Positions 2,242 through 54,363 of a stretch of 64,000 nucleotides of DNA are shown piece after piece. Where the stretch lies: positions 13,121 to 77,120 of the forward strand of contig JAZJXP010000054.1 in NCBI GenBank assembly GCA_040390835.1, read 5' to 3'. The notes beneath the pieces are model-generated. The model was not told the origin of the DNA and ran no database searches. It saw only the letters and a program-made list of their open reading frames with translations. The position numbers and the translations under genes are program-made. How positions within the stretch are numbered: the stretch's first letter is position 1; each line of letters starts with the position of its first letter. Source of the stretch: Pseudomonadota bacterium. GTDB taxonomy: Bacteria; Pseudomonadota; Gammaproteobacteria; Burkholderiales; Burkholderiaceae_D.

Positions 2242-2487
2242 AAATAACAGACGTATTTTACAAAGAATGGCAACCGCTTATCGGACGGACTGCACAGCTT
2301 CAAGAATTTCGATATAGGTGCGTGAGTAAATCTGTTAATGTTGATGGTTCAGTTGAAATACTGATGACGGCGGCGTAATAATTTTTTTTAAAAATAACAT
2401 GCGCTGTATTCGCTGCACTTGCGATATGTATTTAATAAGGATGAGTTGATCCTGTTAGTGAAAACCAGAGAAGGTATGAAACTTTAG

Positions 2488-10610: not shown

Positions 10611-10686
10611 AGCACCTGAGTTTAAAAAAGTCGTATAATCTGCCGTCGTCGTGGTTCTGGAGCATTTCAGAACCCGAAGAAAAATG

Positions 10687-12775
<2,089 letters not shown>

Positions 12776-13470: not shown

Positions 13471-13583
13471 CCCTCCCCTTCAAGGGGAGGGTTAGGGTGG
13501 GGATGGGTTTCAGTTGATAAAACAAGCATGTAGTTTGCTAAAGAAACCCATCCCCATCCCCGCCTTCCCCTTGAAGGGGAAGG
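13471..13583. repeat. Palindromic repeat cluster downstream of the DUF559 gene
   Basis: CCCTCCCCTTCAAGGGGAGGG at 13471-13491 is the exact reverse complement of the 13050-13070 copy. A long hairpin is formed by TGGGGATGGGTTTC (13498-13511) and GAAACCCATCCCCA (13543-13556). A related palindrome CCTTCCCCTTGAAGGGGAAGG lies at 13563-13583. Confidence 0.7.
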
Positions 13584-13657
13584 AGTTGCACCGCAATTTG
13601 TACAAGTATTCCCTTATCGGTGCGCAAGTAAAAATAATTTCCCCAATGTCGGAGAAA

Positions 13658-14452
13658 ATGATGAACACAGAAAACACTCAAGGCCTAACCATAGCCGGCA
13701 AAACCTACCGCTCCCGCCTCCTGGTCGGCAGCGGCAAATACAAAGACCTGGAACAAACCCGTCTGGCGACAGAAGCCAGTGGTGCCGAGATCATCACGGT
13801 GGCGATACGCCGTGTGAACATAGGTCAAGATCCGAACGCACCCAGCTTGCTGGACGTAGTGCCACCCAGCAAATACACCATACTGCCTAACTCTGCCGGT
13901 TGCTATAACGCCGAAGATGCGGTGTACACCTTGCGACTGGGACGTGAATTATTAGGTGGTCACAAACTGTGCAAGTTGGAAGTACTGGGCGACGAGAAAA
14001 CCCTGTTCCCGAATATGCCTGAAACTCTGAAGGCGGCCAAAACTTTGGTACAGGATGGTTTTGATGTCATGGTGTATTGCAGCGATGACCCGATACAGGC
14101 ACGCATGCTGGAAGACATAGGCTGCGTTGCCATCATGCCGCTGGCATCATTGATAGGCTCTGGCATGGGTATTTTGAATCCTTGGAATCTGTCACTGATT
14201 ATCGAACAGTGCAAGGTGCCGGTACTGGTGGATGCTGGTGTCGGCACAGCATCTGATGCCGCCATCGCTATGGAGCTGGGTTGTGACGGGGTGTTGATGA
14301 ATACCGCGATTGCCGGTGCCAAAGACCCGGTACGCATGGCACGTGCCATGGGTCTGGCGGTCGAAGCCGGGCGTGAAGCATTCCTTGCAGGCCGTATGCC
14401 GCGCAAGTTTGCCGCGTCACCGTCTTCTCCCATGGCTGGCCGCATTGTTTGA
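13658..14452 (+). CDS. thiG: Thiazole synthase ThiG
   Basis: Conserved ThiG sequence ([21 protein letters not shown]...KLEVLGD...[11 protein letters not shown]...[10 protein letters not shown]). The start is uncertain among 13646, 13658 and 13661. GGAG at 13651-13654 favours 13658 or 13661. The 5' part of the tracked ORF (13514) only translates the repeats. Confidence 0.9.
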
Positions 14453-14473
14453 TATTCGTTTGATGGTCATTTG

Positions 14474-15292
14474 ATGAAATCGATAACGCGTCCCTGTGTA
14501 CTGGTGTTCGCCGGACATGATCCCAGTGGCGGCGCTGGCGTACAGGCCGACATAGAAGCCATCGCCGCACAGGGCGCGCATGCCTTGCCGGTGATTACTG
14601 CACTGACAGTGCAAGACAATGACCATGCCTATGCCGTGCATGCTGTTGATGTACAAATCATCTTGCAACAAGCCATGACCCTGGTGGCCAAGATACCGGT
14701 CAAGGTCATCAAACTAGGCATCGTTGCGCACAAAAAAAATGCGACAGCGATTGCCAGCTTTATCCAGAAGATGAAACAACAGCATGCTGATCTGCAAGTC
14801 ATTGTTGATCCTGTGTTGGGCAGCGGTCACGGTGACAGTTTGTCGCTGGACGATGCAGTCGAAGCGATACAGCCTTTACTGAAAGTCGCAACACTGGTCA
14901 CACCTAATTTACCTGAGTTGAAACGCTTGTCACCATTGGCTGTTGATATACAGACGCAAGTAGAAAACCTGATGCAAAACACCAGCGCAGATGTCTTGTT
15001 AAAAGGCGGACATGCAACAGAAGCACAAGTAAAAAACATCTGGTTCCAGCATGGTCAATGGCAGACCGCACAAGAATGGTTGTGGCCGCGCTTGCCTGGT
15101 GAATTCCATGGCAGCGGTTGTACATTGGCATCAGCAATTGCCGGACAGCTGGCAATCGGCGCAGCTTTGCCAGGCGCATTGCAACAAGCTCAAAGCTATA
15201 CACAGCAAAGTCTGTTACATGCGTATGCGATAGCAGCAGGGCAGCTCATACCGGCACGTCAGCCATTGCTGAATACAAGGAAAAAATCATGA
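14474..15292 (+). CDS. thiD: Hydroxymethylpyrimidine/phosphomethylpyrimidine kinase ThiD
   Basis: VLVFAGHDPSGGAGVQADIEA..KLGIV...LVTPNLPE..LLKGGH..GSGCTLASAIA are ThiD hallmarks. Confidence 0.9.
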   Translation: MKSITRPCVLVFAGHDPSGGAGVQADIEAIAAQGAHALPVITALTVQDNDHAYAVHAVDVQIILQQAMTLVAKIPVKVIKLGIVAHKKNATAIASFIQKMKQQHADLQVIVDPVLGSGHGDSLSLDDAVEAIQPLLKVATLVTPNLPELKRLSPLAVDIQTQVENLMQNTSADVLLKGGHATEAQVKNIWFQHGQWQTAQEWLWPRLPGEFHGSGCTLASAIAGQLAIGAALPGALQQAQSYTQQSLLHAYAIAAGQLIPARQPLLNTRKKS

Positions 15293-34297: not shown

Positions 34298-35992
34298 CTA
34301 AATCTTGTTTTTCTGCTGTTTGAGATAAACAGCGCTGTCTGGCCTGAACATCGCCTGGTTGATCTTTTCTTCCAGTTCATCAAAAGCACGCCCGGTCATG
34401 CTTGTATAGCTATCGCTTTGCGCAGTATCGCTGCTGGAATTCAAGCTGGATTTAATGTACGAAGTATTCGGATAATCAGGTGTGTCCACCTGCAGATTAA
34501 ATTTCCAGCGGTCTTTACTCTCAGGTATCACAATAACTGCATTGAAGCGTAAGCTCAGACCGGCATAAACTTCGTTCGTGTTTACAGATGCAAACAGCTT
34601 GCCAGATGGCTCTACCTGATAAGTGATTTCCAGCGAGGGCCGATTGTCATTTCCACCAGTAGCGGCACTGAAATTCAATATATCACTGGGAAAAATACTG
34701 GAAAATGCCTTGTTGATATTGTTGGCAATGCGCGCCTCCCTGACCGCAACGCTGTCATCTGAAAAATATTTTGCTGCCGGGACTATTTTTTTATCCTTGA
34801 TGGTCTTTTCACGGTTCTTCAGACTGGCATCCAGTTGACCCAATTCTGTGGCCGTAGGCCGCGTAAATTTGATAGGGACATTGGGGTCGTCATGCTCTTC
34901 AGAAAATTTTAGCAGCGACTCGACAGATCGTAATAATTTAGCGTCGGCGTTGACGGCCTGTGCCCTGAATTTTTGCAAGGCATTGAAATACAGCATATGA
35001 ATTTCTTCTTCAACTTCCGGCAAAATATCTGCATGCGGAAAGCGTGCCTTTAGCTTGCGCAAATGCGTGACCGAGTTGTCATTGAGTGCTTCCTTGAACA
35101 GCACCCGGGGCAGTTCATCCTGCATCTCTGTCACTTTGAATTTGCCATGGGCAATGTAGCCTAGATAGGCACTTTCTGTCTGCTGCTGTTTTGCATGCAG
35201 ATACATCTTCTTGTCCGCAACTGCATTTCTGCCATACCAGAACAGGGTGGCCAGAACTGTCGCCAGCATGATCAACAACAAAGGTAATTTCAGAAAGCTT
35301 GACAGCTTCAGGACTTGCTTGTTCTTGCCTGAATGACCCAATGCTTCTTTCCACTTGTTTTTGCGCACGTCCAGCAAAGGGTCATATCCATACAGGCTGG
35401 CGATATCACGTTGATGAAACGCATCCCGCGCTTTTGATTTGTAAACATTAAATTTTTTCAGCGCAGCTTCAGCCTGACTTAAATTGCTGATAATCAGGTT
35501 TTTTTGTGATCCATCATTAAAGCTGAAAGAAAAAATAGTTCTCTTATACTTGCCATCACGTTCATCATGCCTGGATTCCAGTTTGCGTAGTTGCGCCAGA
35601 TCATGCACGGCAATTTTACTGCTGCGCATATCAACCAGTGCCAAGGGGAATAAATACCAGCCAGGAAGAAAGCGAAATTTTGTGTTCAATTGCATACGTT
35701 GCCAAATCGCATGCGCTGCATACACCACACCCAAAAACAGCACGGCATACCAGAAAAGTAAACCAGTGTCTGTCCATGCCTTATCTTGCAGGGGATTACC
35801 AAAGTTGGACGCTGCCAGCAGATAAATAAAGAAAGTGCATACTGCCAGAATAAAGCCATGCAGCAAGTACCAACCCATACTGGACATGACCTGTCCATGC
35901 ACCAGAAAGTCAGGGTTTTTGACCGATCTGATCAAATGCTTTTTGACGTTACGGGGCAGTGCATCATAATCGAATTGATAGAAGACTCGCAC
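34298..35992 (-). CDS. Hypothetical membrane protein (3 TM, large C-terminal soluble domain)
   Basis: 564-aa ORF. The GTG start is preceded by AAGGAA at a 6-nt spacing. There are two N-terminal TM segments (WYLLHGFILAVCTFFIYLLAA; LLFWYAVLFLGVVYAAHAIW) and a third at LPLLLIMLATVLATLFWY. I recognised no family motif. The region looks AT-richer by eye. Confidence 0.7.
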   Translation of the reverse strand: MRVFYQFDYDALPRNVKKHLIRSVKNPDFLVHGQVMSSMGWYLLHGFILAVCTFFIYLLAASNFGNPLQDKAWTDTGLLFWYAVLFLGVVYAAHAIWQRMQLNTKFRFLPGWYLFPLALVDMRSSKIAVHDLAQLRKLESRHDERDGKYKRTIFSFSFNDGSQKNLIISNLSQAEAALKKFNVYKSKARDAFHQRDIASLYGYDPLLDVRKNKWKEALGHSGKNKQVLKLSSFLKLPLLLIMLATVLATLFWYGRNAVADKKMYLHAKQQQTESAYLGYIAHGKFKVTEMQDELPRVLFKEALNDNSVTHLRKLKARFPHADILPEVEEEIHMLYFNALQKFRAQAVNADAKLLRSVESLLKFSEEHDDPNVPIKFTRPTATELGQLDASLKNREKTIKDKKIVPAAKYFSDDSVAVREARIANNINKAFSSIFPSDILNFSAATGGNDNRPSLEITYQVEPSGKLFASVNTNEVYAGLSLRFNAVIVIPESKDRWKFNLQVDTPDYPNTSYIKSSLNSSSDTAQSDSYTSMTGRAFDELEEKINQAMFRPDSAVYLKQQKNKI

Positions 35993-36312
35993 CAGGACTT
36001 TCCTTAAACTTAAAATGGCAGATCAGCCAGAAGGGCGCACATATATTCATCACATATACTCACCGCATTTACTGACTTAAACTGCGCCTTTGGAAATGAA
36101 ATACAAAGTTGGCAGTATCGTCATTTCCCATGCTATGGTCAATTCACTTGTCTCATTCTGGCGGCCATGCACAAAACTATTTTTTATCATGCCCATTCAT
36201 CAGAAAATTCCCGCCATTTATCGGCAATGACGGGGAAGTAATCGCAAAGCAAAGGAAGTTAAACTTGTTCATCCGTATATTGCACATCATCAACAACCCT
36301 TATGGAGTAACG

Positions 36313-36927
36313 ATGATGAAACACTGGAAAATCTTAATCGCAGCACCCCTGGTCGCTTTTGCAGTCAACTTTTCTTATGCAGGAGCCGTCAAGACCGGCA
36401 TCCCCAAAGGATGGATAGGCGGCGGAGCGATTGCCACGCATTATGAAAGTGGTCTTGATGAGTCGCAAGGTACTAAAGAACAGCCCGCCTTCTTTATCAC
36501 GGCAAAAGATGCCGGCAAGGATGATTTTGCTGCCATTACGCAAGTGGTGGATGCCGCTGCCTATCGTGGAAAAGTAATGATTTTTACCGCATCGGCCCTA
36601 TACATAGGTGAGCCGGGTGGTTATGAATTCTGGATACGTACCATAGATGACAAAGGCAGTGTATCCATTACTTCTGCAAGGGCGCGCAAGAGTGATACTT
36701 GGGAAACAGTCAAGGTTTTGCTGAGAGTGCCAGCAAATGTGCAAAAACTGGAATTGGGTATAGCTGTCAGAGACAAGGGGAAATTGCTGGCCAAGGGAAT
36801 GAATTTTACTGAAGCGCAAACCAGTAACCCTCTTCCCGAAAACAGGCCCGTTGCCGACAGAATCATCATGGGACCCGTAACCGCGGCCATACAAAACCTG
36901 AGTTTCTCTGAACAGGCAAAAGATTGA
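36313..36927 (+). CDS. Secreted hypothetical protein, translationally coupled to the downstream LytS-type kinase
   Basis: 204 aa from the ATG at 36313 (GGAG at 36304-36307). It has a signal peptide (ILIAAPLVAFAVNFSYAGA/V). Its TGA overlaps the kinase ATG (TGATG at 36925-36929). Confidence 0.65.
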   Translation: MMKHWKILIAAPLVAFAVNFSYAGAVKTGIPKGWIGGGAIATHYESGLDESQGTKEQPAFFITAKDAGKDDFAAITQVVDAAAYRGKVMIFTASALYIGEPGGYEFWIRTIDDKGSVSITSARARKSDTWETVKVLLRVPANVQKLELGIAVRDKGKLLAKGMNFTEAQTSNPLPENRPVADRIIMGPVTAAIQNLSFSEQAKD

Positions 36928-37988
36928 TGCACGAAGATTCAATAATCTCCGATCAGGGCAAGAGCCACGCTGGCATCGTTACGATGCTTGCATTGCCGCT
37001 CTTGCCCATGGCGGCAGTGCTGGCCTTGCTTTTGTACGCAGGTGTCAATGCGACGCGTTCAGTCTGGCTGGCAGATAGTCTGGCGGTATTGTTGTCCTAT
37101 ACCCTGGCACAAACTGGTCTGTGTCTGTCGCAGAGAATTGTGTGGTTCACACATGCCAGCCAGCGATGGGTAGTGCTGGTGGTATTTACACTGCTGTCTC
37201 TGTATGCCGGGATGCAAGTGGAAATCGCCTATTGGCCGCTATTGACGACAGGCCACGCAATCTGGGTAATGCCCACTATCATCCTGGTGTTTATCTTCGT
37301 CACGGTATTACCTGGCTCTATAGCGCTGGAAGTCAAGCGCAGCACCCAGGCCAGCCTTGCGGCAGAAGCCATCAAACACAAAATGGAAAGGCAAATGCTG
37401 GAAGCCAGGCTTGCTGCATTACAGGGCCAGATAGAGCCACACTTTTTATTTAACACCCTCGCCAACACCCGCGCCCTGATACATCAGGATGCTGCGATGG
37501 CTGAACAGATGCTGAACCACCTCATCGCCTACCTGCGGGCCGCCATGCCCGACATGCGTCTTAGCACCACTACGCTGGGGCAAGAGCTGGATAGAGCTGC
37601 CGCCTATCTGCAAATCTTCCAGATACGCCTGGGCGCACGTTTCCAGTTTTCTGTGCAAGCCGCAGATGAAGTCCGCTCCTGCCTGATCCCGCCATTGGCC
37701 GTCATGAGCCTGGTGGAAAATGCGATCAAGCATGGCATAGAACCCCAACCCGGCGATGTGCGCATAGATATCGCTGCCAGCTGCGAAGCAGGGCAATTGC
37801 AGATCAAAGTCAGTGACAATGGCCGTGGCTTTCAACATGAACTGGGTAGTGGCGTTGGCTTGCTGAACGTGCAGGAAAGACTGTTGGCTTTGTTCGGTGA
37901 ACAGGCAGAATTACAATTGCAGCCAGGTGATGCTGGCGGTGTGTGTGCGACAATATATTTACCAGCCAGAACTAGTGAACTGGCATGA
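36927..37988 (+). CDS. LytS/YehU-type sensor histidine kinase (His_kinase + HATPase)
   Basis: About 5 N-terminal TM segments. QIEPHFLFNTLANTRALI is the diagnostic H-box of the LytS-type family. LVENAIKHG and DNGRGF..GVGL are ATPase boxes. Confidence 0.85.
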   Translation: MHEDSIISDQGKSHAGIVTMLALPLLPMAAVLALLLYAGVNATRSVWLADSLAVLLSYTLAQTGLCLSQRIVWFTHASQRWVVLVVFTLLSLYAGMQVEIAYWPLLTTGHAIWVMPTIILVFIFVTVLPGSIALEVKRSTQASLAAEAIKHKMERQMLEARLAALQGQIEPHFLFNTLANTRALIHQDAAMAEQMLNHLIAYLRAAMPDMRLSTTTLGQELDRAAAYLQIFQIRLGARFQFSVQAADEVRSCLIPPLAVMSLVENAIKHGIEPQPGDVRIDIAASCEAGQLQIKVSDNGRGFQHELGSGVGLLNVQERLLALFGEQAELQLQPGDAGGVCATIYLPARTSELA

Positions 37989-38728
37989 GCATGAACAATC
38001 ATAAACCCAAAGTACTGATCGCCGAAGATGAAACAATCCTGCGCCAAGAGCTGCAAAGTGCATTGACACTGCTATGGCCAGAACTGGACATCATCGCCAG
38101 TGTTGATGACGGTATCAAAGCCGCACAAGCCATAGCCGACCTGAGCCCCGATATCGCTTTTCTGGATGTACGCATGCCCGGCTTGAGCGGTATAGACGTG
38201 GCACGCCTGGCGCAGCATCCATGCCATATCGTCTTCCTGACTGCCCACAATGATTATGCTGTCGATGCTTTTGAGCAGGGCGCAGTCGATTACCTGCTCA
38301 AGCCGCTCGACATGGGCCGACTGGCACTGGCCGTGCAAAGACTCAGACAGCGCCTGTCACAGCAACCAGCTGATCTGTCTGCCCTGCAAATCAAAAAGCC
38401 GCAAGAGCCACTGCGCTGGATACAGGCTTCCATCGGCAACCAGATACGCTTCATTAATGTCAGCGACGTGCTTTGCTTCCGTGCAGATTCCAAATACACC
38501 AAGGTCATCACCGCCAAACTCGAAGCCTATATCCGCACCACCATCAAAGACCTGGTTGCGCAACTGGATGCCGATAAATTCTGGCAGATATCACGCAGTA
38601 ATATTGTCAACGTGGCGGCGATAGATGCGGTGCAAAGAAGTGATGGTGGCCTGGCTTTGCGATTGCAGAAAGAAGATGACTGGCTAACGGTGTCACAAGC
38701 CTATCAATATCAGTTCAGGCAGATGTGA
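37985..38728 (+). CDS. LytTR-family response regulator
   Basis: Receiver domain (VLIAEDE...FLDVRMPGLSG...YLLKP) plus a C-terminal LytTR domain (IRFINVSDVLCFRADSKYTKV...FWQISRSNIVN). The ATGA overlaps the kinase stop. Confidence 0.9.
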   Translation: MSMNNHKPKVLIAEDETILRQELQSALTLLWPELDIIASVDDGIKAAQAIADLSPDIAFLDVRMPGLSGIDVARLAQHPCHIVFLTAHNDYAVDAFEQGAVDYLLKPLDMGRLALAVQRLRQRLSQQPADLSALQIKKPQEPLRWIQASIGNQIRFINVSDVLCFRADSKYTKVITAKLEAYIRTTIKDLVAQLDADKFWQISRSNIVNVAAIDAVQRSDGGLALRLQKEDDWLTVSQAYQYQFRQM

Positions 38729-38747
38729 CACCGGGTTTAGCGCAAAC

Positions 38748-40187
38748 TCAAATATAAGCAAACTTCCTCTCATAATCGACTCCGCAGTTAAACGGAAATT
38801 CTGCATGCTGCCAGAAATGGAAGTGCGCTGTTGCTGATGAATATTCAGCCAGTGCAGCGCCAAGGGTGTCGGCGGCGCCTGCCGGGATGGCATGGTCTGG
38901 TCTTAGTTGTACGGCGACGCGGGCCTGGCCATCGAGCAGGGACATGCGGAAATTGCCTGTTATGGCGGCAGCAATGCGTTTGTCGGCATACAATGCTTCC
39001 TTGACTGCTTCAGGGTAGAGCCGTCCATCATCTCCAGCCAGGAATTTGCCGCGACCGGAGACTGCGATGAATGGTAATTTCAAGTCAGGTGTCAGGCCTA
39101 TGTCATGCTCGCGCAAGATGGCGACCACCTTTTCATAGTCATACACAGCGCCGCAATCGCCGGAACGATAGCGCAGCAAGGGTATCTTCATTTCTTCGCT
39201 AAGCATGGAGACCACCAGTTCTTGCTGGTGATCATCTCTGTCCAGGGTCTCTACATAACAGCGGTTCGGATAGTAGATGAAGAACATCGGGCAGCAGCGT
39301 GTCTCTTCACCAAACAGGGCGTGGCGCAAGGCCGGGTTGCGGTGGGCCAGGCGGCGTATGCGTATGCTTTCACGGGTTTCGTGAAAGATATTCAAGTCCA
39401 GTTCAGCCACACCCATGGAAGAGCCTATGAGCTTGCCGTTGGGATTATCAAAATCAGTCAGACCTATCAAACCAGCAATATAGCTGCGATAGTTTTCGGC
39501 AATACCTTCTTCGCCAGTAATGATTTGCAATTGTATGGCGGGCCAGTCTATGCCGTGCAGCTCATATCCATCTTCAATAATTTTCTTGATGAACGAGGCT
39601 TCGCCAACCAGGATGACTTGTTCAAACTCTGCTGCAAATTTCTTGATGACGGCAAACACCATGTCTTCCCGCACACTGGTTTCAGCCAGGAAGGTGGCAT
39701 CGGTATGTACCTTGACACCCATGGGCAGGCAATTGATCAGCAGGGTGGATTTGTCGTCGGTATGAAACAGGTACTGCAAACCGAGATCCGTTGACTTCGC
39801 CGAGCGTTGCAGATTATCCCTGGTATTAACGCCGAAAGAGAACACGCCGGAATGGCCGGAACTAGTCAGCAAACTGCGCACGCCATCCAGGCTGCCATCT
39901 ATGCACAAATCGGCGATATCGTGCTTGCCAAAGGTATTGTGTTTGTCCAGCACAGGTGCATGTTCACGGAAAGCGGCGATAGATGAAATGGCTGCTATAT
40001 CGACACCCTGTTCACTTAACATGCGGCGATAAAAGGGCGCAGTTTCAGCGGCGCGCGCAAATGCCTGCAGCGTTGCCTGCTCGCTTAACTCACGCAGTAT
40101 TTGTGGTGGTGTTTCACGCAAGAGGCGTATGGTTTCCTGGCGTTCCAGACGGTCAGCAGGGCTGGCATAAGGTTTAATTGATTTCAT
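38748..40187 (-). CDS. PaaK / coenzyme F390 synthetase-like adenylate-forming enzyme (ANL superfamily)
   Basis: 479 aa. FYRRMLSEQGVD...LDKHNTF is an N-terminal PaaK-like region. LLTSSGHSGVFSF is a variant of the SSGTTG P-loop. ITGEEG and LLRYRSGDCG resemble the YRTGD motif. The substrate is unknown. Confidence 0.7.
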   Translation of the reverse strand: MKSIKPYASPADRLERQETIRLLRETPPQILRELSEQATLQAFARAAETAPFYRRMLSEQGVDIAAISSIAAFREHAPVLDKHNTFGKHDIADLCIDGSLDGVRSLLTSSGHSGVFSFGVNTRDNLQRSAKSTDLGLQYLFHTDDKSTLLINCLPMGVKVHTDATFLAETSVREDMVFAVIKKFAAEFEQVILVGEASFIKKIIEDGYELHGIDWPAIQLQIITGEEGIAENYRSYIAGLIGLTDFDNPNGKLIGSSMGVAELDLNIFHETRESIRIRRLAHRNPALRHALFGEETRCCPMFFIYYPNRCYVETLDRDDHQQELVVSMLSEEMKIPLLRYRSGDCGAVYDYEKVVAILREHDIGLTPDLKLPFIAVSGRGKFLAGDDGRLYPEAVKEALYADKRIAAAITGNFRMSLLDGQARVAVQLRPDHAIPAGAADTLGAALAEYSSATAHFHFWQHAEFPFNCGVDYERKFAYI

Positions 40188-40929
40188 AGGTATTCGATGA
40201 ACTATTTATTGAAGTATGTGTGGGTGCCGCATAAAGCTTGGGGGAGGCTTGTAGTACGCCATGAGTAAAGTCTTCAAACATGCCGGGCATCAGCCTGGCA
40301 AAATTCAGCTCACATTCGCTAAGGCAGAGCAAGAAAGGCTGGACTTTTCCGTAGTAGTCAACGACCGGGCCTACAGGCTTGAAGGGCAATTGAAAACGGA
40401 TCAGCATGCGCGCAAGGCTGCTTTCCATGGCAGCCAGAAAATACTGTATGCCTTGCAGTTTTGCTTCGCGATAAATTACCTTGTACAAGCCGATTGCCAG
40501 TTCAGATTGCCAGCGCCTTTCATCTGCAGATTGCAGCTTGGATGGTAGCGTGACCTGTGACAAGAACTTGTCACCTGCACTGACGGCAATGCGATCGTGA
40601 CCACGAGTTACAGCCAGGCGTGACACTTCTGCAGTGTGCTGGGGTATGGCGATGTCGAGACCGCATTTTTCTTGCAGAGGGTAATGTCGGCTTCGTGCGC
40701 CAACCAGGCGCACGGTCCCTGCCATATGCCCGTCATCACTCAGAGCAGCAAAGTGCAGCGCATCATCATCATAAAAATCTGTTTCCATCCCGCAGGGGTA
40801 GGCCGCGGCCTGCAAGAAACCGCGTTCCTTGCAATACACCTGATAGCGCAAACGATAACTCTCGGCCAGCAGCGCCGGGCAATTGATACGCCCGAAACGA
40901 AATTGCGAGCGTTGAAATTCTTCATCCAT
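40174..40929 (-). CDS. LuxI/FeeM-like acyltransferase (N-acyl amino acid synthase family; resembles the PEP-CTERM/exosortase-associated acyltransferase family, from memory)
   Basis: 251 aa. YRLRYQVYCKERGF......ETDFYDDDALHF.....G...GTVRLV...EVSRLAV....GLYKVIYREAK..GIQYFLAAME..LARML..F..PFKPVGPVVDYYG. It overlaps the downstream adenylating-enzyme gene by 14 nt. Confidence 0.65.
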   Translation of the reverse strand: MDEEFQRSQFRFGRINCPALLAESYRLRYQVYCKERGFLQAAAYPCGMETDFYDDDALHFAALSDDGHMAGTVRLVGARSRHYPLQEKCGLDIAIPQHTAEVSRLAVTRGHDRIAVSAGDKFLSQVTLPSKLQSADERRWQSELAIGLYKVIYREAKLQGIQYFLAAMESSLARMLIRFQLPFKPVGPVVDYYGKVQPFLLCLSECELNFARLMPGMFEDFTHGVLQASPKLYAAPTHTSINSSSNTYEIN

Positions 40930-41211
40930 TTTGACTCCCTACATTCAGCTAAACAGTAAAGCTAGGGGCTTTACTATATGATTGCCGCCAGGTAATTACT
41001 TGTCAAAACAGATAACTGGTTATTAATTTCAGATCAGCGGTTTTTTGAAAAATTGTGTAACAGATAAGCGGTAGAAAAATGCGGATGAGAGGTTTTGCTG
41101 CGATATTTGTTGCGGTATTTGTTGAGTATCAGGTGATGAGTAATGGGGGTAAATAGGAAATGTAAACGCGGGATGTAAACGGGATGGAATAATCAGCGAT
41201 GAGCTAATCGC

Positions 41212-41589
41212 TTAATCATCCTTCTCCACAAATCTCTTCAGCCTGCCGAGTGCCATTTCCCATTCGCGACCTATGGATTCCAGCGTACGTTTGGCTTCAT
41301 CTATGCTGGTGGGTTCCAGTTGCCACAGTCGCTCTCTTCCTGCCTTGATGTCGCTGACGACACCTGCTTCTGCCAGTACGTTCAGATGTTTGGTGACGCC
41401 CTGGCGGCTGATGGCTGTCGTTTGCGTCAGGTGAGAAATCGAGAACACGCCACCGGCGCAGAGTACAGCCACCAGCTTCAGGCGCGTTGGGTCGCCGAGG
41501 GCGGCGAAGACATGGGCCAGCGTGTCGTCGGCCGTGACTCTGCTTGCGACTGACTCGCTGGTTTTGCTTGTTACTTTATTTGCTGACAT
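41212..41589 (-). CDS. ArsR/SmtB-family transcriptional regulator
   Basis: FAALGDPTRLKLVAVLC.....SISHLTQTTAISRQGVTKHLNVL is the winged-HTH signature. Confidence 0.85.
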   Translation of the reverse strand: MSANKVTSKTSESVASRVTADDTLAHVFAALGDPTRLKLVAVLCAGGVFSISHLTQTTAISRQGVTKHLNVLAEAGVVSDIKAGRERLWQLEPTSIDEAKRTLESIGREWEMALGRLKRFVEKDD

Positions 41590-42055
41590 GGTTGAGCAGG
41601 TTTTGCAGTTGTATATCCCAACCTTCTGTATTCATTTCAAAAGCGGTGCGGCGGCGATGGGCTGGTACTTTGTCAAAGCCGGATTCAATGACAGTCAGCA
41701 AGGTGGCATTGCCGGACGCCTCTTTTAAACTGAAACTGACCAGTGTCGGTATTTCGTCAGAGTAATCAGTGGTGGTGTCGATTGCATATGGATGCCAGTG
41801 GAAAGACATGGCATCTTGCGGCTGTATGTGCTGGATGACGATATCGAATACCAGACCTTCGCAACCCGGGTGAGTAAACGGGCCGCGTGTACGCTGGCCA
41901 GGCTGGAACACCTGACCAGTCAGGTCGGCACCAAACCATGCGCCAAATTCTTCGGCATTCGTCAGTGCGCGCCACACACGTTCACGTGCGCCATTGATGA
42001 CGATGCTGCGCTCAATGCTATCTGTATTACTGGTGCGATTGGTATTATTACTCAT
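41576..42055 (-). CDS. SRPBCC / AHSA1-domain protein
   Basis: 159 aa. IERSIVINGARERVWRALTNAEEFGAWFG fits the Aha1/START-like family. It overlaps the arsR-like gene by 14 nt. Confidence 0.78.
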   Translation of the reverse strand: MSNNTNRTSNTDSIERSIVINGARERVWRALTNAEEFGAWFGADLTGQVFQPGQRTRGPFTHPGCEGLVFDIVIQHIQPQDAMSFHWHPYAIDTTTDYSDEIPTLVSFSLKEASGNATLLTVIESGFDKVPAHRRRTAFEMNTEGWDIQLQNLLNHVSK

Positions 42056-42543
42056 GCTGCTACTCTCCTTTCCGTAGATGGTGCCTGCTGCTGATCAACT
42101 GGGGCAAAGGGTGTGCCAGTGCCCGTTTCCAGAAATTGTTGCAGGCTGGCGAGAAAATGCTGCCAGCCATTCGTGCATAGCGTATAGCATTGCAGGGAGG
42201 GCAGCAGGCCGATGTGCTCCAGGTCCAGCAGTGTCTTGCCCAGTCCTGCATCGCTAATACGGAACACGATGTGGGTGCCTACCCATTCGTCAGCGCGGCT
42301 GACTGATTCTGCCACGATATGCGCGCGGGTGCATAGCCAGCGTACTTCATTGTCTGGCTCCAGTTTCTCTATGCGCATGTCCTTGTAGCACACGCTGAAG
42401 CAGAATTTCAGAGTGTCGCCAATGGCGGTCCCGCCTTCACAATCCTGGGTCCACCAGGCGCGCAGGCCATCTATCGTAGTGAGGGCTGCATAGACTGCGG
42501 CAGGGCTGGCTTTGATGCTGAGGCTTTGCTGATAGTTCTTCAT
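42052..42543 (-). CDS. SRPBCC / AHSA1-domain protein
   Basis: 163 aa from the ATG at 42543 (GGAGAT upstream). SLSIKASPAAVYAALTTIDGLRAWWT. There is a 4-nt overlap with the next gene. Confidence 0.78.
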   Translation of the reverse strand: MKNYQQSLSIKASPAAVYAALTTIDGLRAWWTQDCEGGTAIGDTLKFCFSVCYKDMRIEKLEPDNEVRWLCTRAHIVAESVSRADEWVGTHIVFRISDAGLGKTLLDLEHIGLLPSLQCYTLCTNGWQHFLASLQQFLETGTGTPFAPVDQQQAPSTERRVAA

Positions 42544-42752
42544 GGGTATCTCCATTTTACAATATGCGCAACCAAATGGATGCATATTCATTATGGGATA
42601 GGTTTTTAATAAATGCAACCAAATAGTTGCTTAATGGATTGCGAGCTTTACAACGACAATCATTGATGCGAGATGAGTTTGAATGAGAAATATCAAGGTC
42701 ATCGCTGTTACAATCCCGGCTGTCTAAAATTTGTTACGAATACATATTTTCA

Positions 42753-43871
42753 ATGAAAAATTCATTACTGCTCGCTTCTATCGTATCTTTATCATTAGCT
42801 GCATGTGGAGGTGGTGGAGCTGGTACAGCGCAGAATTCCACAACTACAGGTGCTACAAGTTCCGGTCAAACTTCGACGGGCACGGGCTCTAATCAAACTT
42901 CCACAGGTACAAACGGTTCTTCACAAACCAATAACGGTACCGTTGCTTCTACTTGTGTCAATAAGCTTGGTAGCAATTGGGTGAAAGTGGGAATGAAGAG
43001 TCTGGACTATGTCATTTACGGCGGGGGGAAATTTCTTGGGGCGAGCTGGGATGGCGCGGCTACCAGTACTGACGGGGCAATCTGGTCAGAGGTGCCAGTA
43101 ATAAAGCAGTTTGACGCGATTGGATATGGGTTGGGGAATTTCGTTGGATTTGTTTATCCCAATCAACAGCCAGCAATTAAACCTGTTTACAGCACTGACG
43201 GTGTTAATTGGAGTCCCGGTCAGGTATCCGCAGAATTGGATGGAAAATATAATATTTCCCCACTGGAGATTGTTGCAGGCGGGGGAAGGTTGATTACTTC
43301 AGACAAATTTTCATCGTTGATCATTTGGAGTGCAGACGGAAAATTGTGGCAAAAAGCAGTTGGATTACCTGTAAACGTCATTCCCAAAAATTATGTGCTT
43401 AACTGGCTTGCTTATGCAAATGGTAGTTTCTTTGCTGCTGGCACGGGTAGCACTTCGAACAAATACCAGATATTCAGTAGTACGGATGGGAATAGCTGGA
43501 AGGAAATTATTATCAAGGGCGACGGTATTTTCCCATCAACCTTGATTGCTGGCATGCAATATATAGGTAATCAGTATGTCGCGATTGATCAAAATGGCGT
43601 TATCGCGACCAGTCGTGATGCAATCAACTGGCAAACTGCTCTGAATACAAATGCAAAGGTCGAAGGCTTCGGCAACTTCATGGTAGCTGGTGCAGGACAG
43701 TTGATGACGGTGGTTGGCAGTAGAGAGAATTCTAGAGTTTATTACAGTTGCGATGGCGCGAGCTGGAGTTCCGTAGGGATACAAACCGGCATTTTTGGAT
43801 TTAAGCTTGCTATTGGAAATTCTTCTGCTGTCATTGTTGATGGATCGTTCGGATATGTTTCTAAATTCTGA
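42753..43871 (+). CDS. Lipoprotein with six Asp-box (BNR-like) repeats, probable beta-propeller
   Basis: The lipobox is LSLAA/CGGGG. A 45-aa S/T/G/N/Q-rich linker follows. Six S-x-D-G-x-x-W motifs are present: STDGAIW, STDGVNW, SADGKLW, STDGNSW, SRDAINW and SCDGASW. Confidence 0.78.
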   Translation: MKNSLLLASIVSLSLAACGGGGAGTAQNSTTTGATSSGQTSTGTGSNQTSTGTNGSSQTNNGTVASTCVNKLGSNWVKVGMKSLDYVIYGGGKFLGASWDGAATSTDGAIWSEVPVIKQFDAIGYGLGNFVGFVYPNQQPAIKPVYSTDGVNWSPGQVSAELDGKYNISPLEIVAGGGRLITSDKFSSLIIWSADGKLWQKAVGLPVNVIPKNYVLNWLAYANGSFFAAGTGSTSNKYQIFSSTDGNSWKEIIIKGDGIFPSTLIAGMQYIGNQYVAIDQNGVIATSRDAINWQTALNTNAKVEGFGNFMVAGAGQLMTVVGSRENSRVYYSCDGASWSSVGIQTGIFGFKLAIGNSSAVIVDGSFGYVSKF

Positions 43872-51996: not shown

Positions 51997-54363
51997 GTGA
52001 CTGTTTTTCAATTCATCCGCAGTAATTTTATGGCGAACTCTTCGGCACTGGGGGAAACCCATCAGTGGCGCGAGCAGGTGTTGTCGGCCATCCTGTTTTT
52101 TGTACTCGCGCTGGGTGGCGCAACTGCCATACCCAGCATTGTGCTAGCAATCAGTGAAAACCTGTGGTCGGTCGTGGTGGTAGATATTTTTGCCCTGGCC
52201 TGGGTCGCCACTGTCTGGCGTTTGCCTTTTTTGAACTATCAGCAGCGCGCCTGGAATTTTTTACTCTTCCTGTATTTGCTGGGTGTCTGGTTCCTCATCA
52301 AGGTGGGCCTGACGGGCTTGATTTATTTGCTGGCTTTTCCGGTGCTGACCTCTTTGCTGCTGAATATGCGGCTATCCATGCTGGCTTTGATATTGTCTTC
52401 CGTCAGCTTGCTGGTGGTGGGCTATATATCTGATTCCAATTTGCATGTCTATGGCTTTGATTCCCACCCCTTCATGCAACTGGTGGTGGTGACCATCAAC
52501 TTCAGCTTTATTGCTGCCGTCATGTCCATCTCTTGCGGTGTGTTGTTGCAAAGGCTGGACAGTTCACTCGAACATCAGCGCGTCATCACCGCTTCGCTGC
52601 AGCATGGGCAAACTTCATTGAAGGCCGCTAACGAAGAATTGCGCCTGATTGTTGCCGCCGTGGCGCGCCTGAATGACATTGTCATGATCATCAAGGTGGA
52701 TATTGATGTAATAGGAAAACGCCGCCTGAAAATCGTCTTTGTGAATGACGCTTTCGTGCGTCAGACGGGTTTCAAAAGCGAGGACGTGATAGACAAATCG
52801 CCCGTTTTTTTGCAGGGCCCGCGTACCCAGGCAGATGAACTCGACAAACTCAATCAGGCGCTGCTGTCTTACGAATCAGTACACATAGAATTGATTTGCT
52901 ATACCCATGACGGTAGTGAATTCTGGATGGAAGCCGACGTCGTGCCACTGGCCGATGATCAAGGCCTGTTCAGTCACTGGGTTGCCACCGGACGCGATAT
53001 CAGCGACCGTAAAAAAGCCCAGGAACATATACACAGGCTGGCCTATTTTGATGTATTGACGGGCTTGCCTAACCGCCGCCTGTTGCTGGACCGCATGAGT
53101 ATCTTGCTGGCGACAGCAAGGCGCAGCAATATGGTCAGTGCCATTCTCTTTATTGATCTTGATCACTTCAAATACATCAATGATGCACGTGGTCATGCGG
53201 TGGGCGATGCCTTGCTGAACCTCGTCGCACAAAGACTGAGCGGCAGCCTGCGTGAGGTGGATACGGTTGCCCATATTGGTGGCGATGAATTCGTCGTCAT
53301 GCTCTGTCACATTTCCAATAATGTGGCGGCCGGTGCCCATGCTGCGCAGGCCGTGGCAGAAAAAATCCGTCATTCGATATCGCAATTTTTTGATATCAAT
53401 GGCCTGCAATACAGCACCACCTGCAGCATAGGCGTGACCCTGTTACCGCGTGAAAACCAGAATTCACACGACTTGCTGCGTGAGGCTGACACTGCCATGT
53501 ACCGTGCCAAGAGCAGTGGCCGCAATCAAATCGCCTTTTACGAAACCGGCATGCAAACTGAGGTCGAGCAAAGACTGACCATGGAAAGGGAATTGGGTGA
53601 AGCCATCTCTGGCGGACATTTGCACATGTACATACAGGCCCAGGTAGACCGTTTGGGTAAACCCGTCGGCGGTGAAATGCTGATGCGCTGGATACATCCT
53701 GAGCGCGGCTTTATCTCACCCGCTTTATTCATACCGGTGGCAGAAGAATCAGGCATGATCTTGCGTCTGGGGGACTGGGTCATGGAACAGGGCTGCCTGG
53801 CCCTGCTGCAATTGCAGGAGGCAGGTTGGGACATCCCCTTGTCAGTCAATGTCAGCCCCAAGCAATTCCGCCAACCGGATTTTGTTGAAAAAGTCAGACG
53901 CGTATTGCGTTACACTGGCGCACCACCAACACGCCTGATACTGGAAGTGACAGAAGGCCTGCTCATCGACAACCTGCAAGACACCATCGCCCGTATGCTG
54001 GAATTGACGACCCTGGGCATACGCTTTTCCATCGACGATTTTGGTACCGGCTATTCCAGTCTCGCTTACCTCAAGCGACTACCTTTGTATGAACTCAAGA
54101 TAGACAAGAGCTTTGTGCAAGATACGCCGGGTGATGCGAATGGCACGGCCATCGTGCAGTCCATTTTATCGATGGCATCGCACCTGGGTTTGCGCGTCGT
54201 TGCAGAGGGGGTAGAGACCAAAGAGCAGGCAGAATTCCTGATCGCCAATGGCTGCGCATCCATGCAAGGCTTCCTGTTCGCCAGACCCATGCCACTGGAT
54301 AAATGGCTGGCTTTGCAGCAGCAGATAGAGCAGTCAGGGAAAGAGAGTAGCAGGGTGGTTTAG
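51997..54363 (+). CDS. Membrane sensor with PAS-GGDEF-EAL domains
   Basis: About 6 N-terminal TM segments and a PAS-like region (FVNDAFVRQTGFKSEDVIDKS...W....V.P). The GGDEF has an REVD I-site. The EAL domain carries EMLMRW, DDFGTGYSSLAYL, KIDKSF and EGVET. Confidence 0.88.
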   Translation: MTVFQFIRSNFMANSSALGETHQWREQVLSAILFFVLALGGATAIPSIVLAISENLWSVVVVDIFALAWVATVWRLPFLNYQQRAWNFLLFLYLLGVWFLIKVGLTGLIYLLAFPVLTSLLLNMRLSMLALILSSVSLLVVGYISDSNLHVYGFDSHPFMQLVVVTINFSFIAAVMSISCGVLLQRLDSSLEHQRVITASLQHGQTSLKAANEELRLIVAAVARLNDIVMIIKVDIDVIGKRRLKIVFVNDAFVRQTGFKSEDVIDKSPVFLQGPRTQADELDKLNQALLSYESVHIELICYTHDGSEFWMEADVVPLADDQGLFSHWVATGRDISDRKKAQEHIHRLAYFDVLTGLPNRRLLLDRMSILLATARRSNMVSAILFIDLDHFKYINDARGHAVGDALLNLVAQRLSGSLREVDTVAHIGGDEFVVMLCHISNNVAAGAHAAQAVAEKIRHSISQFFDINGLQYSTTCSIGVTLLPRENQNSHDLLREADTAMYRAKSSGRNQIAFYETGMQTEVEQRLTMERELGEAISGGHLHMYIQAQVDRLGKPVGGEMLMRWIHPERGFISPALFIPVAEESGMILRLGDWVMEQGCLALLQLQEAGWDIPLSVNVSPKQFRQPDFVEKVRRVLRYTGAPPTRLILEVTEGLLIDNLQDTIARMLELTTLGIRFSIDDFGTGYSSLAYLKRLPLYELKIDKSFVQDTPGDANGTAIVQSILSMASHLGLRVVAEGVETKEQAEFLIANGCASMQGFLFARPMPLDKWLALQQQIEQSGKESSRVV

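Follow-up and report, generated by a model that had tools for sequence, protein, structure and literature searches.

The genes described here lie in a 64-kb stretch of DNA that was analysed as a whole and is called the window below. An acyltransferase gene and a ligase gene form an operon on the reverse strand with its own putative promoter and candidate regulatory boxes, and this operon faces that of a two-component system on the forward strand. The features of the locus are:

34298-35992, reverse strand: 564-aa protein with hydrophobic stretches and no recognised domain, divergent from the kinase operon (listed for context)
36313-36927, forward strand: secreted protein, 204 aa, with a signal-peptide-like N-terminus, first gene of the kinase operon
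36924-37988, forward strand: LytS-type histidine kinase, 354 aa, with a membrane region (PF06580 and HATPase_c)
37985-38728, forward strand: LytTR response regulator with receiver and LytTR domains (PF00072, PF04397), convergent with the ligase
38748-40187, reverse strand: predicted PaaK-fold adenylate-forming enzyme, 479 aa, of an uncurated family that we call LIG (AF2, Foldseek, hhalign)
40174-40929, reverse strand: acyltransferase of the NAS type (synthase of N-acyl amino acids), 251 aa, with a FeeM/Acetyltransf_5 domain (TIGR03694, PF21926, PF13444)
40978-41006, reverse strand: sigma-70-like promoter of the acyltransferase-ligase operon, TTGACA-17-AATCAT, 10/12 match to the consensus
41013-41093, reverse strand: four candidate LytTR-type half-sites in two pairs with 13-bp spacers
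41086-41093, reverse strand: half-site ACCTCTCA, paired with ACCGCTTA
41065-41072, reverse strand: half-site ACCGCTTA, paired with ACCTCTCA
41034-41041, reverse strand: half-site ACCGCTGA, paired with ACCAGTTA
41013-41020, reverse strand: half-site ACCAGTTA, the last one, which ends 6 nt upstream of the -35 hexamer

The start of the ligase gene overlaps the stop of the acyltransferase gene by 14 nt (40174-40187), as the initial annotation had stated. Its tail-to-tail layout of the ligase and the LytTR gene also holds, but the spacing is 19 bp and not 20 bp (LytTR stop at 38728, ligase stop at 38748). A terminator scan of this 19-bp convergent gap found none, and Rfam and tRNA scans returned no element in the locus.

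The 251-aa protein had been read as a LuxI/FeeM-like acyltransferase from the motifs YRLRYQVYCKERGF, ETDFYDDD, GTVRLV, EVSRLAV and VGPVVDYYG, all of which are found in the ORF translation. The protein scored 152.6 bits against TIGR03694, above the curated NCBIfam cut-off of 111.95, with a match that spans residues 10-220 of the protein and positions 8-232 of the 241 in the model. In Pfam searches PF21926 reached 34.9 bits and PF13444 reached 34.5 bits, scores that exceed the respective cut-offs, and the identical protein at NCBI bears the name 'PEP-CTERM/exosortase system-associated acyltransferase'. TIGR03694 is a family tied to the exosortase system (PMC7293339, and the source names); it was defined via a phylogenetic profile. 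A TIGR03694-type gene is required for a polysaccharide phenotype (PMC11072679), and type I NAS enzymes of the FeeM type are reported to be active in E. coli with host acyl-ACP and no partner (PMC4897644). Among solved structures, those closest to the 251-aa protein in sequence belong to LuxI-type synthases, one of them RpaI (6wn0), which uses CoA substrates. Nevertheless, PF00765 (Autoind_synth) gave no match at E<=0.01, which ruled out LuxI membership. Thus the FeeM/NAS part of the first reading stands, together with the PEP-CTERM/exosortase-linked family that it had named, and the LuxI part falls. Membership in TIGR03694 is established by the curated threshold, and from this membership we infer the N-acyl amino acid synthase reaction.

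The 479-aa protein had been assigned to the PaaK/ANL adenylating enzymes from a variant P-loop (TSSGHSG) and a YRSGD motif, and both motifs are present in the translation. No Pfam model matched this protein, AMP-binding included, and NCBIfam returned only sub-threshold PaaK matches (25.6 bits against the PaaK equivalog cut-off of 700). Judged by the NCBIfam equivalog and Pfam AMP-binding, the ligase does not belong to PaaK proper. Because a sequence search of the PDB was uninformative, with a best E of 0.49 and no useful match, a fold search was needed. The AF2 model of the ligase (pLDDT 90.1, pTM 0.91) had PaaK1 (2y27) as its best Foldseek match (E 4e-22, TM 0.69/0.77), and we are confident that the predicted structure is the two-domain adenylate-forming PaaK fold. 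Alignment with E. coli PaaK by hhalign (probability 79%) agreed with the assignment. It paired LLRYRSGD with VIRYRTRD and SGRGKF with SGRSDD, so that the RYRTxD ribose-binding motif and the GRxDD hinge both have their counterparts in the ligase, and residues R338, Y339, D343 and G377 are invariant in the LIG family. The canonical P-loop reads (S/T)SG(S/T)TGxPK; in the alignment TSSGHSG was paired with SSGTTGKPT of PaaK, is three residues shorter and has no Lys, and S108, S109, G110, S112 and G113 of this loop are invariant across the family. Since the usual Lys is missing from the P-loop, the chemistry of the ligase may differ from that of PaaK.

The LIG family has 638 representatives at E<=1e-30. 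Its profile reaches only 1859 library proteins at E<=0.001, so ordinary PaaKs fall outside its detection. Compared with Undibacterium orthologues, dN/dS was 0.05-0.07 for the ligase and 0.055-0.13 for the acyltransferase, and both genes are under strong purifying selection. Across proteobacterial orders the identity of the ligase is 60-65%, against at most 45% for the acyltransferase. A literature search found no paper in which a PaaK-like enzyme is described as partner to the NAS genes of exosortase systems.

To place the pair among other genomes, we took a census of 53 loci that represent more than 10 phyla and have flanks of 3 kb or more on both sides. In 46 of the 53, the ligase had a FeeM-like acyltransferase no further than 10 kb away; one of the TIGR03694 type lay within 300 bp in 17 loci, and one of a second FeeM type in 17 loci. 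PEP-CTERM, exosortase, PrsT or PrsR markers were found within 10 kb of the ligase in 40/53 loci. One natural fusion of acyltransferase and ligase was seen, in a single metagenomic protein (P0358), and in another protein (P0217) a 7TM membrane domain is fused to the ligase. The spread over more than 10 phyla indicates that the pairing is ancient, and the adjacency in most loci, together with the fusion, indicates that the two enzymes are functionally coupled. To this extent the initial annotation was right to couple the two genes. Two Planctomycetia loci (L011 and L023) weaken its view of the ligase as a feeder of the acyltransferase: there a single protein joins the NAS domain to a canonical AMP-binding enzyme and a PP-binding carrier domain, and the locus still retains the ligase as a gene of its own; other loci carry an AMP-binding/PP/PlsC protein. 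Because acyl activation is already covered in such loci, the ligase is probably not the supplier of acyl donors.

We then searched the window with HMMs built from the related loci (38 PEP-CTERM, 6 exosortase, 8 PrsT and 5 PrsR sequences). No PEP-CTERM, exosortase, PrsT or PrsR homologue was found in the 64 kb, and neither an HMM of the 38 C-termini nor a regular expression detected a PEP-CTERM tail. The exosortase, PrsT, PrsR and PepA HMMs had no match in the window or in the U. pigrum flanks (up to 10 kb) beyond receiver/HTH cross-matches. No LuxR and no ACP turned up in a Pfam scan of 20 window proteins, the others being read by eye; the Pfam-scanned proteins also included no dedicated ACP or FadD-type gene. 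These searches agree with the initial annotation, which had seen no exosortase, PEP-CTERM protein, LuxR or ACP here. A literature search found nothing on Undibacterium exosortases.

The LytS/LytTR unit itself was correctly recognised, as the Pfam domains of the kinase and the regulator show. The best NCBIfam match of the regulator is BtsR (139.5 bits, under the cut-off of 246), and its identity to E. coli BtsR is 31%, a distance at which LytTR specificities are not transferable (PMC4847170). The kinase aligns with E. coli BtsS in the kinase core only, and Pfam found neither a GAF nor a 5TM-Lyt sensor in it. The kinase gene overlaps each of its neighbours by 4 nt. The 204-aa protein encoded ahead of it matched no Pfam or NCBIfam model; its family has 14 clusters, and the named members all come from Undibacterium or a Burkholderiales MAG, which indicates that the family is restricted to Undibacterium-like genomes. 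The core of its AF2 model (pLDDT ~87) matched CBM4/16/22 and tailspike domains in Foldseek with a TM of ~0.5, and thus looks like a beta-sandwich resembling carbohydrate-binding modules (CBMs). The divergent 564-aa gene is syntenic in every Undibacterium-like locus. Nothing in this block points to sensing of the product of the pair by the kinase.

The convergent layout with the 19-bp gap is kept in the window, in U. pigrum and in loci L081 and L086. Outside the Undibacterium lineage, however, the ligase adjoins LytS/LytTR in 0/75 loci, and the pair goes with PEP-CTERM/exosortase genes; adjacency to LytS/LytTR is confined to this lineage. This is largely the outcome that the initial annotation had named as refuting its reading. 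In Undibacterium sp. TC9W and Ji42W the LytS/LytTR block is kept and the pair is absent, from which it follows that the two-component system has other roles. What lies between the LytTR gene and His_Phos_1/dtd/tyrS varies: depending on the genome, this slot holds the pair, an esterase or an ArsR-AHSA1 cassette.

The -35 hexamer of the promoter of the pair is unchanged in four orthologous loci. The region from -61 to -170 is 71-92% conserved, compared with 24-38% further upstream, and the block stays at this level even where dS is saturated. LytTR sites lie upstream of the promoter that they control and consist of directly repeated elements, each about 8-11 nt long and separated by 11-13 nt, and the E. 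coli BtsR site is ACCGCTTA-N13-ACCACTCA (PMC4847170, Table 1). The four half-sites at 41013-41093, in two pairs with 13-nt spacers, conform to this architecture, and the arrangements ACCGCTGA-N13-ACCAGTTA and ACCTCTCA-N13-ACCGCTTA resemble the BtsR site. When the E. coli BtsR consensus was used as an a-priori query with up to 2 mismatches, 3 matches were observed in the window against 0.24 expected, and 1.31 Mb of other loci held only 4, one of which is the orthologous promoter. Such boxes were found only in Undibacterium promoters of the pair. None was present in the intergenic region between the 564-aa and 204-aa genes, upstream of the regulator operon, in six loci, so no autoinduction loop is visible, and none was found near the two-component system in the genomes without the pair. 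A sigma-54 promoter for the kinase operon (TGGCAG...TCAT, judged by eye) was considered and dropped as a poor match. Given a sigma-70-like promoter preceded by four LytTR-type half-sites, a LytTR regulator probably activates the pair, and regulatory coupling to the neighbouring one is plausible.

Taken together, we propose, with slightly better than even confidence, that the pair is a stand-alone copy of a conserved two-enzyme lipoamino-acid module of a kind usually found in PEP-CTERM/exosortase/exopolysaccharide loci, that its ligase adenylates a carboxylate, and that it is probably LytTR-switched; it is not a LuxI/LuxR-type system. The acyltransferase would synthesise N-acyl amino acids, and the translationally coupled PaaK-fold enzyme would use ATP to adenylate a carboxylate, most likely the one that is left free in the N-acyl amino acid. 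Once activated, this group would pass to another nucleophile, for example CoA or an amine or hydroxyl group. Within the Undibacterium lineage, the module occupies the variable chromosomal slot directly downstream of the genus-specific operon for the CBM-like protein, the kinase and the regulator, which makes the neighbouring LytTR regulator the obvious candidate activator.

This proposal has to be weighed against rival accounts. The adjacency to LytS/LytTR may be inherited synteny only, with the pair serving an exosortase system elsewhere in the genome and the boxes being non-LytTR sites or bound by another regulator. The variable content of the slot, the 31% identity of the regulator to BtsR and the description of TIGR03694 as exosortase-linked (PMC7293339) all fit this account, which is a genuine possibility although we do not expect it to hold: the boxes are statistically unexpected, are limited to the lineage in which the pair abuts a LytTR regulator, and immediately precede the -35, a placement in keeping with LytTR activators. 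A different division of labour, in which the ligase activates an unusual carboxylic acid as acyl-AMP or acyl-CoA and the acyltransferase uses it as donor for an atypical N-acyl amino acid, with no signalling involved, seems to us unlikely. It would explain the tight coupling of the genes (the 14-nt overlap and the one fusion), the small aryl and alkyl acids that are typical PaaK-family substrates in the Foldseek match list, and the lack of a dedicated ACP or FadD-type gene in the window. It would not account for the loci that retain the ligase next to a NAS fused to AMP-binding and carrier domains, or for the reported activity of FeeM-type enzymes on host acyl-ACP without a partner (PMC4897644), and a selector of variable acyl groups would not be expected to be far more conserved (60-65%) than the acyltransferase (at most 45%).

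The initial annotation had favoured a producer-plus-sensor system, that is, a non-canonical quorum-sensing circuit. In it, an aryl or branched acid would be CoA-activated by the PaaK-like enzyme and converted by the LuxI-like enzyme to an acylated signal that can diffuse, and LytS/LytTR would sense this signal and autoinduce the operon. The 19-bp adjacency conserved in the four loci named above, the LytTR-type boxes in the promoter and the LuxI-type nearest solved relatives, including RpaI (6wn0), speak for it. We nonetheless consider it the least probable account, and a very improbable one. The acyltransferase belongs to TIGR03694 and lacks a PF00765 match, the adjacency is seen in 0/75 loci outside the lineage, and two Undibacterium genomes own the two-component system without the pair. 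In addition, the periplasmic protein encoded with the kinase is predicted to resemble a carbohydrate-binding module and not a lipid binder, NAS/AMP-binding/carrier fusions coexist with the ligase, and the kinase operon has no upstream box, hence no visible autoinduction loop. For the claim of a new quorum-sensing circuit, the outcome is thus mostly deflationary.

The lipoamino-acid module that we prefer bears on the role of the PEP-CTERM/exosortase-linked NAS and on the chemistry of exosortase substrate attachment and release. LIG is a sharply delimited PaaK-fold family without a Pfam or NCBIfam model and a near-constant, occasionally fused, partner of NAS in more than 10 phyla, and the two enzymes form a concrete two-enzyme unit for biochemistry. 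The Undibacterium copy is a minimal form, with two genes, a promoter of its own and a candidate regulator, and the cultured type strain U. pigrum DSM 19792 offers a convenient experimental entry. As a much more speculative extension, and an improbable one in its full form, the PaaK-fold family could be the missing chemical partner of the exosortase-linked NAS, adenylating the lipoamino acid carboxylate to give an activated lipid (a CoA ester, azlactone or amide conjugate) that modifies or anchors PEP-CTERM proteins or exopolysaccharide. In Undibacterium the core would have been detached from its exosortase locus and rewired to LytS/LytTR with a glycan-sensing CBM-like partner, and would make a surface-active lipoamino acid on polysaccharide cues.

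Comparison with known systems places each part of the locus. The ligase has the two-domain fold in common with the PaaK-family enzymes PaaK1 (2y27), BT_0428 (4rvn), NatL2 (6tm4), AjiA1 (6wuq), ClxA (9s45) and HCL (6hdx), with a TM of up to 0.77, and the RYRxxD and GRxxx hinge motifs align. It differs from them in having only 12-16% identity, no Pfam AMP-binding match, a shorter P-loop without Lys, and a C-terminal D-x-E-x-K motif that is invariant in LIG and specific to it, and that most members spell DYERKF. The acyltransferase shares family, FeeM/Acetyltransf_5 domain and public annotation name with the TIGR03694 systems, but here the 64-kb window has no PEP-CTERM, exosortase or Prs gene, and unlike the sigma-54/PrsR setting of PEP-CTERM genes (PMC1569441), the promoter is sigma-70-like with LytTR-type boxes. 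FeeM, the eDNA N-acyl tyrosine synthase with the dedicated ACP FeeL, has PF21926 in common with it, although this model scores low (34.9 bits) and covers just the N-terminal part (residues 24-112); no dedicated ACP is present here, and the partner is a PaaK-fold enzyme. The CoA-using LuxI-type AHL synthases (RpaI 6wn0; 6wns) are distantly similar to it across the N-terminal block, with E values of 1.3e-4 to 3e-3, and share the E-x-S-R and G-x-x-R-L motifs; PF00765 does not match, there is no LuxR, and the family of the 251-aa protein is NAS and not an HSL synthase family. The regulator has the same architecture as BtsR of the pyruvate-sensing E. coli BtsS/BtsR (YehU/YehT) system, its best NCBIfam match, but is below the equivalog cut-off with 31% identity, and the 354-aa kinase lacks the BtsS sensor region and has a CBM-like secreted protein encoded ahead of it. 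In Stieleria maiorica the stieleriacine cluster comprises four NAS genes together with one TcdA/ThiF-like and one PEP-CTERM gene (PMC7293339), and the paper makes no mention of a PaaK-like gene; the repertoire of the cluster matches that of the Planctomycetia ligase loci (NAS, ThiF and PEP-CTERM), of which the window holds only the NAS-ligase core. The pair thus represents a familiar type of system, found here in a genomic and regulatory setting that is new, and its partner enzyme is uncharacterised.

The 251-aa acyltransferase and the 479-aa ligase (together, the pair) lie where the initial annotation had placed them, with the same overlap and every quoted motif:

40174-40929, minus strand: acyltransferase ORF, 251 aa, overlapping the ligase ORF by 14 nt
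38748-40187, minus strand: ligase ORF, 479 aa, overlapping the acyltransferase ORF by 14 nt
36313-36927, plus strand: 204-aa secreted protein, first gene of the kinase operon
36924-37988, plus strand: LytS-type kinase
37985-38728, plus strand: LytTR regulator

The acyltransferase had been read as a LuxI-like synthase, with the exosortase-linked N-acyl amino acid synthases (NAS) named as a second comparison. When the autoinducer synthase, FeeM/NAS and exosortase-associated models were searched as had been proposed, the protein scored 152.6 bits against TIGR03694, 'PEP-CTERM/exosortase system-associated acyltransferase' (cut-off 111.95), and passed the Pfam cut-offs for both FeeM and Acetyltransf_5, while the LuxI model PF00765 gave no match. 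Its sole similarity to LuxI structures is weak and N-terminal (E 1e-4). Because the protein exceeds the TIGR03694 cut-off and does not match PF00765, the exosortase-linked synthases are its actual family. This family is a known one with existing annotation, and NCBI already gives the identical protein the TIGR03694 name.

The ligase matched no Pfam model, and NCBIfam returned PaaK-like matches below threshold only. Its alignment-based AlphaFold model was confident (pLDDT 90.1, pTM 0.91), and the structural matches of the model were PaaK1, BT_0428, NatL2, AjiA1, ClxA and 2-hydroxyisobutyryl-CoA ligase (E down to 4e-22, TM up to 0.77). In a profile alignment to E. coli PaaK, TSSGHSG matched the P-loop SSGTTGKPT, although three residues are deleted and the Lys is absent in the ligase; LLRYRSGD matched VIRYRTRD, and SGRGKF the SGRSDD hinge. 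The predicted structure and the profile alignment provide evidence for the PaaK-like adenylating fold that had been proposed. A C-terminal D-x-E-x-K is invariant across the ligase family, as DYERKF in most members. The family is sharply delimited: of 1.84 billion representatives, a cut-off of E<=0.001 reached only 1859 and one of E<=1e-30 only 638.

When genomes were scanned with the ligase profile, 77 loci were obtained, whose ORFs were then clustered and the recurrent clusters annotated. The loci come from Alpha-, Beta- and Gammaproteobacteria, Desulfobacterota, Planctomycetota, Verrucomicrobiota, Omnitrophota, Rokubacteria, Acidobacteriota, Bacteroidota, Lentisphaerae, Chloroflexota, Patescibacteria and others. 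Neighbors were counted over the 53 loci in which 3 kb or more flank the ligase on each side. A FeeM-like acyltransferase was found within 10 kb in 46 of the 53 and within 3 kb in 42; within 300 bp, 17 loci had a TIGR03694-type acyltransferase and 17 a second FeeM type (PF21926, 102 bits). At least one PEP-CTERM-system marker (PepA-like PEP-CTERM protein, exosortase, PrsT-like TPR protein or PrsR-like sigma-54 regulator) lay within 10 kb in 40/53 loci, and the PepA-like protein itself in 34/53. Among these loci, a LytS/LytTR unit adjoined the ligase in Undibacterium pigrum alone, so the census speaks for the PEP-CTERM association and not for the proposed LytS/LytTR one. Further recurrent neighbors were LolA-like, LolCE-like and ABC ATPase genes, a ThiF + Amidohydro_2 pair, an AMP-binding/PP-binding/PlsC protein, and sugar transferase and polysaccharide-export genes.

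The gene set around the ligase spans several phyla (loci L004-L080; for example L016 1559-11401, L035 2930-17202 and L013 4981-13596). It includes a specific PEP-CTERM protein of ~270-300 aa, in which a DP[IV] motif is conserved shortly before the PEP box, together with the LolA-like/LolCE-like/ABC ATPase genes, ThiF + Amidohydro_2 and the Aas-like AMP-binding/PP/PlsC protein. This set resembles a pathway that makes and exports lipids and is linked to one PEP-CTERM protein.

What is the role of the ligase? In the 740-aa protein P0358, a FeeM/Acetyltransf_5 domain is followed by the ligase in a natural fusion, therefore the two enzymes act together. In two Planctomycetia loci (L011 3474-6239, minus strand; L023 3112-5859, minus strand) one protein combines a FeeM-like NAS domain with a canonical AMP-binding enzyme and a carrier domain for phosphopantetheine (PP-binding); these loci therefore already have the means to activate and load the acyl group, and yet the ligase is kept as a separate gene. 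The ligase is also far more conserved across proteobacterial orders (60-65% identity) than the acyltransferase (<=45%), and type I NAS enzymes of the FeeM type reportedly draw on the acyl-ACP of the host when in E. coli (PMC4897644). Together, these observations make the feeder role less likely. We favor a ligase acting after the acyltransferase: it would adenylate a carboxylate, for which the N-acyl amino acid is the simplest source, and the adenylated group would be passed on to a further acceptor. In another fusion, P0217, a HisKA_7TM membrane domain (7TM) is joined to the ligase.

The closest cultured relative of the window MAG, U. pigrum DSM 19792, has an identical local gene order (acyltransferase 85% and ligase 91% identical), and the pair is under strong purifying selection (dN/dS 0.05-0.13). 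The neighboring kinase (PF06580 + HATPase_c) and regulator (PF00072 + PF04397) are indeed a LytS/LytTR unit. The gap between the LytTR stop and the ligase stop is 19 bp rather than 20 bp. The 204-aa protein, kinase and regulator genes follow in that order with a 4-nt overlap at each junction. No terminator-like hairpin was found in 38729-38747, between the convergent LytTR and ligase stops; the two transcripts probably overlap there, which could cause mutual interference of the two operons.

The block 36313-40929 had been proposed as a producer-plus-sensor system. Undibacterium sp. TC9W and Ji42W keep the ~562-aa protein (homologue of a 564-aa protein in the window), ~200-aa protein, kinase and regulator in order, in the same synteny between dusB-fis-purH and His_Phos_1-dtd-tyrS, and lack the pair. 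What follows the LytTR gene varies: the slot is occupied by the pair, by an esterase or by an ArsR-AHSA1 cassette. The 204-aa family is limited to Undibacterium-like genomes (14 clusters). Taken together, these results argue against a dedicated producer-sensor unit, and a quorum-sensing system is not supported. For the 204-aa protein, the core is predicted to be a beta-sandwich nearest to CBM4/16/22 carbohydrate-binding modules and tailspike domains, a weak hint that the kinase input may be a glycan and not a lipid.

The ArsR/AHSA1/AHSA1 cassette fills this variable slot in the window (41212-43871, with an added 372-aa lipoprotein-like gene without a recognized domain) and in Ji42W (L085 12612-13925); U. 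pigrum and TC9W do not have it. Upstream of the kinase, U. pigrum (L004 11192-12467) and Ji42W have two paralogues of the 204-aa protein in tandem, and the window has one. The intergenic region 35993-36312, between the 564-aa and 204-aa genes, is highly conserved in 6/6 Undibacterium-like loci and contains, in the kinase operon leader, the imperfect palindrome CCCGCCATTTATCGGCAATGACGGG (hairpin 36210-36234).

A regulatory link is a separate matter. Across four orthologous loci, the 170 bp that precede the acyltransferase show 71-92% identity, against 24-38% further upstream, and this is so even for L082 with its saturated dS of 1.65. Inside this block is a TTGACA-17-AATCAT promoter, directly preceded by four half-sites, ACCTCTCA-N13-ACCGCTTA and ACCGCTGA-N13-ACCAGTTA. 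The E. coli BtsR (YehT) site is ACCGCTTA-N13-ACCACTCA (PMC4847170 Table 1), and LytTR sites generally have 9-11-nt repeats with 11-13-nt spacers (PMC4847170). Allowing <=2 mismatches, the E. coli consensus ACCRCTYA-N13-ACCRCTYA had 3 matches in the window against 0.24 expected, two being the tandem promoter sites, in a test formalized after the repeats had been noticed but with a pattern taken from the literature. In 1.31 Mb of other loci there were 4 matches, one in the orthologous L081 promoter. The consensus is that of E. coli BtsR, to which the adjacent regulator is 31% identical, scoring under the equivalog cut-off; the kinase has none of the BtsS sensor domains, and no BtsR-type boxes were found upstream of the kinase operon. 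The conserved block, promoter and boxes favor a regulatory link, and we give direct control of the pair by the adjacent regulator about an even chance.

The third match, ACCGCTTA-N13-ACAGCTTC (2273-2301, plus strand, 2 mismatches), is intergenic, some 190 bp ahead of an ABC_sub_bind (PF04392) gene (2488-3666), and could be either fortuitous or a further target of LytTR control. The following 1516-aa protein (3849-8399), cross-hit by receiver-domain queries, appears by eye to be a hybrid kinase with GGDEF + EAL motifs. Translations of the large signaling proteins at 3849-8399, 8463-10610 and 51997-54363, read by eye, have GGDEF/GGEEF motifs in 3/3 and EAL-type motifs in 2/3, which suggests heavy c-di-GMP signaling in the neighborhood. 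A TPP riboswitch (RF00059, 61.5 bits; 10679-10780, plus strand) precedes a thiC-like gene, followed by ThiG- and ThiD-like genes (by eye) at 13514-15292.

In the literature searched, we found no report of the family of PaaK-fold partners and of how nearly constantly it is paired with exosortase-linked synthases, nor of the detached minimal acyltransferase-ligase form in Undibacterium, nor of the LytTR-type promoter of this form. In Methylomonas LW13, mutation of a TIGR03694-type gene abolished a polysaccharide phenotype (PMC11072679), and in the stieleriacine cluster NAS genes occur together with a ThiF-like gene and a PEP-CTERM gene (PMC7293339).
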